Below are positions 54,301 through 64,000 of a DNA stretch of 64,000 bases, piece by piece. The position numbers were made by a program. Positions within the stretch are counted from its first letter, which is position 1. Every line of letters starts with the position of its first letter. Source of the stretch: Elusimicrobiota bacterium (GTDB lineage Bacteria; Elusimicrobiota; Elusimicrobia; UBA1565); NCBI GenBank assembly GCA_016218495.1, contig JACRDU010000124.1:6681-70680 (forward strand), written 5' to 3'.

Positions 54301-57300
54301 CGCGTCATCTCCGGCACCCTGACGGCTTCGACGCCGGCCAACGCGGCGTATTCCTCCGGGCTGTGGCCGGGGCGGGTGTTGTAGACGAGGGTGGTGTCGA
54401 ACCGGGACTTGTCGAGCGCCCGGCACAGGGCCGCCACCTGGGCGCCGGTGCCGCCGGGCCCGCCGCACTCGACGACCTGGAAGACCTTGAGGGGGGTCAT
54501 GGCGGGACGACGCTCCCCCAGAGGGCGCTGACGGGCAGGGCCCAGAGGTCCTTTCCGAACGGGAGCACCTCGCGGCCGCCGTAGAGGACGACGCCGCGCA
54601 GGAAGCGTTTGCCCAAGGTGGAACGGAACTCCTCGAGGCCTTTGAAGTCGGAGAGCGTCACCGTGCCGGCCTTGACCTCCACCCCGACGCAGCGGCCGCC
54701 GGCGTCTTCGAGGACGAGGTCGACCTCGCGGCCCGCATGGGTGCGGAAGTGCAGGAGGTTGGGCCGGTTGCGGCTCCAGGCGGCCTGCTTCATGAGCTCG
54801 ACGGCCACGAAGTTCTCGAGGAGCGCGCCGCGCAGGGCGGGGTCGGACTCCAGGCGCCGGGCGTCCGCGCCCGCGAGATGGGCGGCCAGCCCCGTGTCGT
54901 TTAGGATGAGCTTCGGCGTGCGCACCAAGCGCTTGGCCGGGTTCCCGCTCCACGGGGGGAGGCGATGGAGCAGGCAGGCCGCGCCGAGCAGGGAGAGATA
55001 GCGGGCTAACGTGGTCTGGGGCATGCCTGCGGCGCGCCCGAGCTCGGCTATGTTCGTGAGGCCCGTCGTCCGCACGGCGAGGAGCCCGAGGAGGGGCGGC
55101 AATTGGGCCAGCCCCGCGATGTCGGCCAGCTGGCGTACGTCCCGGTCCATGAGGGCCGATAGATAGGAGCCGAACCAGGCCGTGCGCCGCGCGGGGTCGG
55201 TGCGCGCCACCGCCTCCGGGAACCCCCCGCGCAGCACCCGGCGCCACAGCTCCGCGGGAGGGCAGGGGGGGGGCTCCGGCCAGACCGGGCGCGGGGAGAA
55301 GAGGGCGTCGACGAATCCCTCCTGCGTCCCGTCGATCTCGCCCTGGGAGAGCGGCCAGAGGCGGTGGGGCTCCATCCGGCCGACCAGGGCGTCGGAGAGG
55401 CGGGGCAGGAACATGACGTCGGCGGACCCGGTGAGGAGGAAGCGGCCCGGCCTGCGGTCCCGGTCGACGGAGGCTTTGAGGGGGAGGAACAGCTCGGGGG
55501 CCCGCTGGACCTCGTCGATGACCGCGGGTCCCTTGAAGCCGTCGACGAAGCCCTGGGGGTCGTGCCGGGCGGCGGCCAGCGCCGGGGCATCGTCCAAGGT
55601 GACGTAGCGCGAGCTCTGCGCGACCCTCTGCGCCAACCAGCTCTTCCCGGTCTGGCGCGCCCCGGTCAGGACGACGACGGGCGTGTCCTTGAGCGCGGTC
55701 CGGACGAAGGGGGCGAGGCGCCGTTCGTACATCACTTGATTGTAGCCCAGGAGTGGTGGAAAATCAACCACTTGGTGGTGGAATATCCGCCACCAATACC
55801 CTAGTCGGCGATTCGGTAGCGCAGCAGGCAGCGCAGGTAGGACAGGCCGTCCTTCCAGGTGATCTTCTTGCCCTCGGCGTAGGTGCGCCCGGAGTAGGAG
55901 ATGGGCACCTCGTAGAGCCGGGCCTTGCGCTTGCAGATCTTGGCGGTGACCTCGGGCTCGAAGCCGAAGCGGTCCTCCTTGAGCTCGAAGGAGCGCAGCA
56001 GCTCGGAGGTGAAGACCTTGTAGCAGACGCCCATGTCGGTGAGGTTGACGTTGTAGAGGGCGTTGGTCAGCAGGGTGAAGAACTTGTTGGCCGCGTAGTG
56101 CCAGAACAGCAGCACGCGGTGCGGGCCGCCGAGGAAGCGCGAGCCGTAGACGGCGTCGGCGCGCCCATCGAGCAGCGGGGCGAGCAAAATTGGGAAGTCG
56201 GCGGGGTCGTACTCGAGGTCGGCGTCCTGGATGAGGATGAGGTCGCCGGTGGCCTTGGCGATGCCGCTGCGCACGGCCGCGCCTTTGCCGCGGTTGCGCT
56301 CGTGGCGCACCACGACGACGCCGTCGTCCTTCATCTTCTCGAGCAGGTCGCCCGAGCCGTCGCTGGACGCGTCGTCGACGGCGACGATCTCGCGCGGTAT
56401 GCTCAGGCGCACGGTCTGCACGCGGCCGATCAGGGCCGTAACCGTGGCGGCCTCGTTGTAGACCGGGATGATGACGGAGAGCTTGCGCGGCTTCATGGCG
56501 GGATTATACCAACCCTTACCAGGTCTCCTCAGGATATGCGCGGCGGTCCAGCGGGAATTCGCGCGCCTCGCCGCCGCGGAAACGCCTGTAATCGGCCGCG
56601 TCGCGGAACACAGCGGGCTGCGCCGCCGCGAGGTCGCGGAACGACCAGTCATGGCGCAGGACGACGGCGAGGATGTCCCGCGCGTCGCCGTAGTGGCTGC
56701 GGCCGTCCGGGGACACCAGCTCGACGCCGCGCGAGCCGTCGGGTCGCTCGAGCGCGCGGCCCCAGCGCGTGACCACGGCGGGGGCGTAGCCCGCCGTCTC
56801 CTTGAGGCGCTGCGGGACGTCGTTGCCGTCGGCGGCGAAGTCTGAGTAGGCGACCGAGCGGTAGTTGGGGACCAGGCTGCTGCCGAACTGCATGCCGTCC
56901 AGCAGGATGAAGCGGGGCCGGGCGGCGATGTTCCGGTCGATCTCATGCCAGATGCGCTCGTCGAGCCGCTTCTGCGCCCCCCAGGCCTCCCGGACCGCAT
57001 CGTGCGTGAGGAAGCCCAGGTAGAGGGCGAGTCCGGCGAAGGCGGCCCGGCGCGCGCGGCCGGGGTCGCGGGCCAGACGGCGGGCGGCCGCATCCAGGGT
57101 GAGGACCAGCAGCACGGCGAGGCAGAGGCCGGAGCCGTAGGTGTACTTCGGCATGGCCCCCTGGCGGTAGCCGGTGAGCGCGCTCAGCAGGATGGGGACG
57201 AGCCAGGCCAGCGCCAGGATGGCGGCGGCCGGCGCGACGCCGCGGGCGGCCTTCGGGGGCGGAGCGGCACGGCGGCGCAGGAAATAGGCCCAGAGGAGCC

Positions 57301-63300: not shown

Positions 63301-64000
63301 CCGAAGGCGGCCGTCCACAGCCCGTCCATGCCCCGGGCGAAGAAGAGGGCCGCCACCGCGCCGTGGGCGCAGACCATCGACGCGGCGGCCCCGAAGAGGA
63401 GGAGCCAGTCCAGGCGCAGCGGGTAGTCCTTGCCGAGCAGACCCAGCCCCGCCAGCGCGACCAGCGAGAACACGACCCAGCCGGCGGCCACGGCGGCGGG
63501 GAGCAAGCCGCGCACGGCGGCGGCCGTCTCTTTGCGCGCCTCGGCCCGGCTGGCCAGGGGAATCAGCACGGTCTGCAGCATGTTGGAGAGGGCCAACGCG
63601 GCCTGCACCGTCGTGGCGAAGTAGGCGGAATAGAGGCCGGTCTCGGCGGCGTCATGGAGGCGGAAAGTGACGATGCGGCCCGGGGCCTGGATCAGGGCGG
63701 CGGCCAGGACATGGACGACGCCGAGGCTTGCGTAGGGGACCAGGCTGGCCAGGACCGTGGCGTCGAAGGCCCCGCGGACGCGGCGGAAGAGCAGCGCCAG
63801 GGAAGCCGCCGACGCGGCGGCCAGCCCCGCGATGTAGCAGACGACGAGGTCGGAGTAGGAGCGTTCCCCCAGCGCCAGCAGCGCGAGCAGGGAGGCGAGG
63901 GAGGCCGCGCCGTAAAGGGCCTCGACGGACCCGCGCTCGCGGAAGCGGCCGAGGCCCTGCAGCGAGCTCGACGAGACGTGGTGGAAGGCCGTGGCCAGGG

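Follow-up and report, generated by a model that had tools for sequence, protein, structure and literature searches.

An Elusimicrobiota cell-envelope glycan locus combining Wzx/Wzy_C-type genes with a predicted polyprenyl-phosphate sugar synthase and GT-C-fold proteins

In this work, we describe a stretch of 64,000 nucleotides from an Elusimicrobiota bacterium (assembly GCA_016218495.1, contig JACRDU010000124.1, positions 6,681 to 70,680), referred to below as the window, and within it the terminal interval 55801-64000, which encodes a set of glycan-assembly proteins. We hold with moderate confidence that this interval makes up the serotype-like, variable half of one locus for a cell-envelope glycan, about 20 kb long, in which a Wzx/Wzy_C pathway is decorated in the periplasm by a polyprenyl-phosphate-sugar/GT-C system (GT, glycosyltransferase). 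The general idea of the original prediction, that Wzx/Wzy-type lipid-linked assembly is combined with periplasmic tailoring by GT-C enzymes, is supported by the enzyme classes, folds and synteny reported here.

The DNA of the window is about 71% G+C, so that raw lists of open reading frames (ORFs) are unreliable, and genes were called from a frame plot of third-position G+C (GC3), together with inspection of start codons. By this procedure the DNA from 45995 to the window end is a continuous run of minus-strand genes, the last seven of which lie where the original prediction had placed them (aa, amino acids):

55801-56496, minus strand, GT2, 231 aa
56516-58156, minus strand, mem546, 546 aa
58153-59139, minus strand, mt2, 328 aa
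59136-60722, minus strand, gtc528, 528 aa
60722-61966, minus strand, mem414, 414 aa
61963-63153, minus strand, Wzy_C-family protein, 396 aa
63150 to beyond 64000, minus strand, C-terminal part of Wzx, 282 aa in the window, cut by its end

Pfam, NCBIfam and PDB matches and structural models agree with the identities first proposed for these genes: a Ppm-like GT2, three GT-C-fold proteins, a Zn-ribbon methyltransferase, an O-antigen-ligase-family protein and Wzx. The start of mem546 is a TTG codon, supported by homologues, whose alignments begin at residue 4. Every gene had been said to overlap its neighbour by 4 nt; this is true for four of the six junctions (58153/56, 59136/39, 61963/66 and 63150/53), the others being a 1-nt overlap between gtc528 and mem414 (TGATG at 60722) and a 19-nt spacer between GT2 and mem546. 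At least 29 nt separate GT2 from the next downstream gene. Overlaps of the 4-nt type are commonplace in compact high-GC operons.

Gene order in related contigs, designated here by L numbers, carries the case for one locus. In the nearest relative, L036, the order is Wzx, Wzy_C, mem414, GT-C, GT2, GT4, PepP, Bac_transf, DegT, GT4, methyltransferase and GT-C, and the core of this order is kept in the more distant contigs L040, L044, L049 and L050. The interval had been presented as a second glycan-assembly block, a view that does not hold, because relatives join GT2 directly to the GT4-PepP-phosphoglycosyltransferase-DegT-GT4-methyltransferase-GT-C genes. On this comparison, the DNA from 45995 to at least 64000 is one locus of about 20 kb, conserved across Elusimicrobia. 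Its remaining genes in the window, and those at its edge, are:

54497-55771, minus strand, AAA_14/DUF4143 ATPase, between GT2 and GT4 (Pfam)
53436-54500, minus strand, GT4 (Pfam/NCBIfam)
52069-53412, minus strand, PepP (Pfam/NCBIfam)
50652-52076, minus strand, Bac_transf phosphoglycosyltransferase (Pfam, E 7e-59)
49531-50655, minus strand, DegT aminotransferase (Pfam/NCBIfam)
48405-49529, minus strand, second GT4 (Pfam/NCBIfam)
47461-48408, minus strand, mt1, membrane-anchored Zn-ribbon methyltransferase (Pfam/NCBIfam)
45995-47464, minus strand, gtc1, GT-C-like (Pfam/NCBIfam)
43813-46011, plus strand, gtc0, PMT/PMT_2 GT-C, convergent with the locus (Pfam)
42707-43765, minus strand, mannose-1-phosphate guanylyltransferase-like gene (Pfam)
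41283-42698, minus strand, phosphomannomutase-family gene (Pfam)

The convergent gtc0 is itself conserved, with the same orientation, in L044, L049, L050 and L060.

Identity to L036 divides the locus sharply. From GT2 onward it amounts to 81-94%, while gtc528, mem414, Wzy_C and Wzx are only 44-56% identical, and the step falls exactly at GT2, which is the first gene of the conserved half (89% identical to the L036 copy and 68% to those of L038 and L040). The same trend is seen in L040. By analogy, this step is like the one that sets serotype-specific genes apart from the conserved flanks of O-antigen loci. The pair mt2 and mem546 sits exactly here and is absent from L036, L037 and L040, being, by this comparison, an insertion specific to this genome; related loci feature different GT-C complements at the same position, such as a 656-aa 'YLDDY' protein in L038. 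The AAA_14/DUF4143 ATPase gene is also an insertion, outside the glycan machinery: it is absent from the corresponding position of L036, where GT2 is followed directly by GT4. Within the locus, only the spacer 5' of this ATPase gene is clearly AT-richer, and it contains the sole sigma-70-like promoter match of our scan.

GT2 is a predicted polyprenyl-phosphate sugar synthase of the DPMS/ArnC/GtrB-like class. It matches PF00535 (E 2e-31, Pfam), has no predicted transmembrane (TM) helix and carries a DAD motif at residues 91-93; its best PDB relatives are ArnC 9bhc (4e-19), the Pyrococcus DPMS 5mlz (3.5e-18, over residues 4-226 of 231) and GtrB 5ekp. In NCBIfam, the best match is AglJ, below cut-off; the PpgS model matches over the full length at 8e-17, and the ArnC equivalog reaches 72 bits against a cut-off of 529. 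With scores far below equivalog cut-offs, these matches support the class of GT2 and not a particular sugar. Mannose is a weak candidate for the donor sugar, in view of the phosphomannomutase- and mannose-1-phosphate guanylyltransferase-family genes at the locus edge (41283-43765). The Arn lipid A aminoarabinose pathway was considered and ruled out, on the ArnC score and since neither ArnA nor ArnD domains were found in the locus.

Among the GT-C-fold proteins of the interval, gtc528 is recognized directly by PMT_2 (34.7 bits, cut-off 26.1, Pfam), and shows about 10 TM segments with an 'FDEAWYLE' motif after TM1. Its orthologues in L036, L037 and L040 are 56%, 48% and 41% identical, respectively, and a 500-aa protein of L038 has the same N-terminal motif; a gtc528-type gene, variable in sequence, adjoins GT2 in all related loci examined.

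For mem546, no Pfam or NCBIfam match was obtained, and a PDB profile search ended without useful result. A word-indexed search of 5.8 billion proteins returned one homologue, and an exhaustive HMMER search of 1.84 billion proteins only 45 representative clusters. The AlphaFold (AF2) model built on the latter family has a predicted local distance difference test score (pLDDT) of 92.3 and, when compared with the PDB by Foldseek, finds ArnT as best match (5f15/5ezm, E 5e-5), followed by PglB, AftA, AftB, STT3, Pmt4 and DPY19, the first 25 matches all being GT-C enzymes. A nearly invariant Asp, D34, lies in the first loop just after TM1, and the C-terminal domain is beta-rich and presumably periplasmic. 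The model points to mem546 as a GT-C-fold glycosyltransferase of a rare family, one without a Pfam model.

The shorter mem414, also with no match in Pfam or NCBIfam, has 53 homologues, one of which carries PMT_2; all those with a named source come from Elusimicrobia metagenome-assembled genomes (MAGs), in one of which a protein identical to mem414 bears the locus tag HY928_13475. Its AF2 model (pLDDT 90.3) has STT3, AglB, Pmt4, ArnT and PglB as top Foldseek matches, with probability 1.0, and suggests a membrane-only GT-C-fold protein. The first-loop D40 is invariant, and so are R20, R270, PLPG 320-323 and E381/D383/R389/H390. Comparison of the mem546, mem414 and gtc528 family profiles detected no relationship (probabilities below 10%), so that the three are not recent duplicates, and recent paralogy was ruled out. 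We regard mem546 and mem414 as two candidate new GT-C families. Together with gtc1 and gtc0, five GT-C-type genes are found within 20 kb, against one DPMS-like GT2.

The Wzy_C-family protein matches PF04932 with 76.7 bits (Pfam) and is 47-55% identical to its counterparts in L036 and L037; no separate Wzy_C gene was found in L040. Its only NCBIfam match is PEP_O_lig_1, 'putative O-glycosylation ligase' (4e-10, below cut-off), and against PDB sequences it matches no solved structure, those of WaaL, Wzy and PglL included. It may be an O-antigen ligase, a polymerase or an O-oligosaccharyltransferase, roles that sequence searches do not separate.

The gene from 63150 to the window end is assigned, by homology, to the C-terminal part of a flippase of the Wzx/MOP family. 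The encoded fragment has 7 predicted TM segments and scores 16.9 bits with Polysacc_synt_3, below the cut-off of 23 (Pfam); orthologues 44-60% identical to it carry PF01943, that of L036 at the lower end (44%) and that of L037, fused to a cytoplasmic GT-B-like domain, at the upper (60%). The Wzx proteins of relatives carry a fused cytoplasmic domain at the N-terminus, 390-570 aa long (L037 6451-8826, L038 1819-4653, L040 7533-10004), which features a weak Glyco_trans_1_2 match and the conserved motif 'SIDWDxAWQRHQ...FFVENTGFR'.

Two methyltransferases of identical architecture, each immediately upstream of a GT-C gene, had been noted originally. Their coordinates are confirmed, and both mt1 (47461-48408) and mt2 (58153-59139) have two N-terminal CxxC pairs followed by a class I S-adenosylmethionine (SAM) domain; identity between them is 28%, though, and the C-termini differ, mt1 having a hydrophobic helix that mt2 lacks. 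By sequence, they belong to different families and do not form a pair of paralogues. Both match generic class I models only (Methyltransf_23/11/12/25/31, Pfam, E <= 0.01), mt2 matching Methyltransf_23 at 1.3e-23, with UbiG enzymes as its closest solved relatives. A sugar C-methyltransferase of the TylC3/TcaB9 type was ruled out for both, as neither Methyltransf_13 nor Methyltransf_14 was found in them. Methylated sugars in the glycan are a reasonable prediction.

Homologues of mt2 up to 74% identical are found in MAGs of Gallionella, Chthoniobacter, Chloroflexota and Acidobacteria as well as a Prochlorococcus genome, and weaker ones in Methanoregula. They lie in a conserved cassette encoding an HpcH/HpaI aldolase, a cytidylyltransferase, the methyltransferase, a Gfo/Idh/MocA oxidoreductase, an inositol-monophosphatase-family protein (IMPase) and a 2-hydroxyacid dehydrogenase, and mt2 appears, on this evidence, to be a soluble methyltransferase acquired without its usual partner genes. 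The cassette deserves mention in its own right. It was seen in loci L003-L034 (for instance L003 8464-12042, L006 8476-17317, and L028 in Prochlorococcus), with CTP_transf_3 as cytidylyltransferase and additional proteins of about 600-650 aa that have no Pfam match, and it is widely transferred, ranging from Proteobacteria to Chloroflexota, Prochlorococcus, Pelagibacteraceae and Methanoregula. From its gene content it looks like an undescribed CMP-activated sugar-acid pathway, and a literature search found no paper on an HpcH/cytidylyltransferase/methyltransferase cassette.

In 33 other genomes, no mt2 homologue adjoins a homologue of the GT-C genes of the window and, conversely, no such methyltransferase lies near mem546 homologues in the four cases where surroundings are visible, two of them on contigs too short to be very informative. 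A mobile module made of mt2 and a GT-C gene was thus ruled out. A methyltransferase gene upstream of a GT-C gene is consequently not a conserved unit: mt2 and mem546 are inserted here only, and mt1 adjoins gtc1 in some relatives and not in others.

The mt1 family has different surroundings. The C-terminal hydrophobic helix is present in all homologues; in Elusimicrobia-type contigs, mt1 comes after GT4 and is followed by gtc1 or directly by the convergent gtc0, and in 10 of 20 metagenomic loci a DPMS-like GT2 gene lies within about two genes, with mt1 directly downstream of it in most. The mt1 family thus recurs in real association with a polyprenyl-phosphate-sugar/GT-C route. A literature search found nothing on methyltransferases coupled to GT-C systems. 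Low-GC metagenomic contigs (31-36%; L064 2975-8406, L065 2374-8426, L069, L070 and L072) also share a conserved run of genes, made up of those for a protein about 950 aa long, a TPR-repeat GT-C, a GT2 of the DPMS-like type, a methyltransferase resembling mt1, a protein of 268 aa without Pfam match and a rhomboid protease.

The hexamer TATAAT occurs 5 times in the window, compared to 0.33 expected, an excess of about 15-fold, and all copies are 6-33 nt upstream of a start codon:

56508-56503, minus strand, 6 nt before the GT2 ATG at 56496
59151-59146, minus strand, 6 nt before the mt2 ATG at 59139, inside the 3' end of gtc528
53440-53435, minus strand, 22 nt before the pepP ATG at 53412
43796-43801, plus strand, 11 nt before the gtc0 ATG at 43813
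33895-33900, plus strand, 33 nt before the AhpC ATG at 33934

The form GTATAAT-N6-ATG occurs twice, at GT2 and mt2. In L036, where TATAAT is found at 12804-12809, 14566-14571 and 6535-6540, the same boxes precede GT2 and pepP with the same spacing. We read these boxes as putative internal promoters; those before GT2 and before the inserted mt2-mem546 pair may give rise to leaderless transcripts. No recognisable similarity was seen between the sequence preceding the mt2 ATG and that preceding mt2 homologues elsewhere, and hairpins resembling intrinsic terminators are not enriched in the window (8 found, 5.9 expected).

The pathway that we favour builds on these gene identities, folds, synteny, boundary and insertions; from them we infer all the substrates, the acceptor and the order in which the steps take place. 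The Bac_transf phosphoglycosyltransferase would start a polyprenyl-diphosphate-linked oligosaccharide at the cytoplasmic face, the first sugar probably being an amino sugar whose synthesis involves the neighbouring DegT enzyme. The two GT4 enzymes would lengthen the oligosaccharide, Wzx would flip it across the membrane, and the Wzy_C protein would polymerise it or ligate it to an acceptor. LptF/G are encoded at 30243-32530, so the host is a diderm with lipopolysaccharide (LPS) export, and for this reason lipid A-core is the most likely acceptor. In parallel, GT2 would charge polyprenyl phosphate with a sugar taken from a nucleotide donor; once the charged lipid is flipped, gtc528, mem414, mem546, gtc1 and gtc0 might transfer this sugar to the glycan in the periplasm, each at a position of its own, as side or terminal sugars. 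The methyltransferases would have to act before flipping, SAM being assumed to be cytoplasmic only: the membrane-anchored mt1 probably on a lipid-linked intermediate, and the soluble mt2 probably either on the repeat unit during its assembly or on a soluble precursor.

A number of observations weigh against this pathway. There is one Wzy_C protein and no Wzz/GNVR among the window genes scanned and the flanks of the relatives, although these may lie elsewhere in the genome, and polymerase and ligase cannot both be assigned for this reason. No GtrA-type flippase, nor any small multi-TM ORF, was found anywhere in the 64-kb window; by analogy with the MATE protein of Citrobacter youngae, discussed below, a Wzx-family protein or the product of an unlinked gene may move the polyprenyl-phosphate sugar. 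The NCBIfam matches of GT2 (AglJ, ArnC and PpgS) all stop far short of their equivalog cut-offs, the TM-scores of the GT-C matches in Foldseek are modest (0.39-0.53), top-ranked matches being nearly all GT-C, and none of the usual cassette partners of mt2 is present in the window.

General protein O-glycosylation, which we consider unlikely, would make the Wzy_C protein a PglL-type O-oligosaccharyltransferase, acting onto periplasmic or outer-membrane proteins, and the PMT_2-type GT-Cs would add further sugars to proteins or protein-bound glycans. The Wzy_C family includes PglL/PilO O-oligosaccharyltransferases, and the Pfam description, 'O-Antigen ligase', does not split the roles; the sole NCBIfam match of the protein and the matches of gtc528 and gtc0 to protein-mannosyltransferase models lean in this direction. 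The combination of Bac_transf, DegT, GT4 and Wzx, which we take to be a Neisseria pgl-like gene set, could be counted likewise, and general glycosylation loci, too, typically join a phylum-conserved core to a variable part. Nonetheless, ligase and O-oligosaccharyltransferase are not separable by sequence, MIR or acceptor-binding domains were not seen on the GT-Cs, and the Lpt machinery of the organism makes LPS available as acceptor. It is somewhat less probable still that two independent systems happen to be adjacent, namely a Wzx/Wzy_C repeat-unit pathway and GT2/GT-C modules acting on other envelope molecules, such as lipid A/core in ArnC/ArnT style. Among solved structures, GT2 is closest to ArnC and mem546 matches ArnT best, the window encodes a DegT aminotransferase and also, between 18.5 and 22 kb, a UXS-like epimerase along with two UDP-glucose dehydrogenases, and the putative internal promoters split the locus. 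What speaks for a single system is that GT2 and at least one GT-C stay between the Wzx and phosphoglycosyltransferase genes in every relative examined, despite rearrangements, and that the identities to L036 suggest that the GT-C complement co-varies with Wzx/Wzy_C; the ArnC score of GT2 and the failure to find an ArnA formyltransferase or ArnD deformylase domain in the locus argue in the same sense.

Very improbable, in our judgement, is a polymerisation that takes place chiefly in the periplasm: a short primer would be flipped, and the five GT-Cs would build most of the glycan, drawing on one or several polyprenyl-phosphate sugars in the manner of mycobacterial lipomannan/arabinan, with mt1 methylating the lipid-linked donor before it is flipped. 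The ratio of five GT-C-type genes to one DPMS-like GT2 would fit, as would the mannose-related genes at the locus edge, the tail anchor of mt1 and the recurrence of GT-C/GT2/MT1-like triads in distant low-GC contigs. But the two Leloir enzymes of family GT4, Wzx and Wzy_C are conserved too, favouring a conventional repeat unit, the literature search found no described methyltransferase acting on a polyprenyl-monophosphate sugar, and the proposal rests wholly on gene adjacency. The boldest reading, which we think quite doubtful, casts mt1 as a fourth component that O-methylates the lipid-linked donor made by GT2, so that the GT-Cs install pre-methylated sugars; methylation would precede flipping because SAM is presumed to be unavailable in the periplasm, and the glycan would mostly be built outside the cytoplasm by up to five GT-Cs, two of which found new families.

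Some further features of the region are worth reporting. The pepP gene, encoding an M24 Xaa-Pro aminopeptidase, is conserved and always located just upstream of the phosphoglycosyltransferase gene in divergent Elusimicrobia contigs (window 52069-53412, minus strand; L036 14595-15932; L040 15994-17328; L044 925-2235; L049 992-2317), and in L038 a DUF4910/M28-like peptidase is encoded at the equivalent place. At 18505-22154, two divergent genes of the UDP-glucose/GDP-mannose dehydrogenase family lie beside one for a UXS-like short-chain epimerase/dehydratase; their products could provide the glycan locus, 25 kb away, with precursors of the uronic-acid or pentose type. Two very large minus-strand ORFs with GC3 of the coding type were also noted, one at 24725-29569 (1614 aa, no Pfam match) and the other at 11966-17785 (about 1940 aa, stop to stop).

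If the favoured Wzx/Wzy_C pathway with periplasmic GT-C decoration is correct, the locus would represent a phylum-wide genetic blueprint for an envelope glycan of uncultured Elusimicrobia, a group for which a literature search found nothing on glycan loci or surface glycan. The sharp boundary between its halves points to antigenic diversification, with phages or predators as a conceivable selective force. Of the two candidate new GT-C families, that of mem546 is extremely rare, and that of mem414 is so far made up only of Elusimicrobia-type sequences. The link between the mt1 family and GT2/GT-C genes may be a route for methylated sugars into periplasmically assembled glycans. Current concepts are unchanged unless donor methylation by mt1 is true, in which case methylated sugars would become available to periplasmic GT-C enzymes.

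As to the original statement that the set resembles neither a standard O-antigen nor a capsule locus, no characterised O-antigen or exopolysaccharide locus was found to be syntenic. Capsule export of group 1/4 was ruled out: no Wza/Wzc-type domains (Poly_export, PCP tyrosine kinase) were found in the window genes scanned or within +/-10 kb in L036, L037, L038 and L040. With Wzx/Wzy-dependent O-antigen loci, the present one shares the Bac_transf initiator, the Leloir GT4s, Wzx, a Wzy_C-family protein and the meeting of a conserved flank with a highly divergent Wzx/Wzy region, suggestive of antigenic diversification. It differs from them in having just one Wzy_C-family protein and no Wzz found, in the conserved PepP gene inside it, in GT-C genes outnumbering Leloir GTs, and in the fusion of the relatives' Wzx to a cytoplasmic GT-B-like domain.

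Partial likenesses to other pathways are also evident. A DegT aminotransferase, an ArnC-like GT2 and a GT-C with ArnT as best structural match recall the ArnB/ArnC/ArnT pathway; in contrast to it, the locus shows no ArnA/ArnD domains, and its genes are embedded among those for Wzx and Wzy_C. In the N-glycosylation pathway of Haloferax volcanii (AglJ, AglP, AglS, AglR), which ends in the oligosaccharyltransferase AglB, a synthase makes polyprenol-phosphate hexose, the lipid-linked glycan is modified by a SAM methyltransferase, the flippase is Wzx-like, and a membrane transferase depends on lipid-phosphate mannose. The best NCBIfam match of GT2, below cut-off, is AglJ of this pathway, which belongs to another domain of life and uses another lipid carrier; the likeness found is at the family level. 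Mycobacteria and corynebacteria likewise combine a TM-less synthase with several lipid-donor GT-Cs (Ppm1/PpgS with AftA, AftB and Emb; PpgS with Rv3779), and the structural matches of mem546 include AftA and AftB; here, however, the organism is a diderm that has genes for LPS export, Wzx and Wzy_C occur in the locus, and the resemblance is again one of families only.

The closest concept is that of a three-component periplasmic glycosylation system embedded in a Wzx/Wzy-type locus. Such systems include GtrA/GtrB/GtrC of Shigella and Salmonella and CsbB/GtcA/YfhO in Firmicutes (PMC11127046, PMC8035078); cases encoded within O-antigen loci, where a MOP/MATE-type flippase serves the lipid-linked donor, are documented (PMC11127046). 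While they are described with a single GT-C each, here one GT2 is accompanied by five in the whole locus, three of them in the interval; the three of the interval have no detectable sequence relationship, and two of them lack a Pfam family. Unlike in these systems, methyltransferase genes are interleaved, no GtrA-like flippase was found in the window, and GT2 has no counterpart of the TM helices at the C-termini of GtrB and ArnC. The likeness lies in the central arrangement, a GT2 related to ArnC, DPMS and GtrB beside GT-C-fold transferases with a first-loop Asp. In Citrobacter youngae O1/O2, a system of synthase, MATE flippase and GT136 is located within the O-antigen locus (PMC11127046), and the Elusimicrobiota locus similarly encodes GT2 and GT-C proteins inside a surface-glycan locus with a MOP-superfamily transporter.

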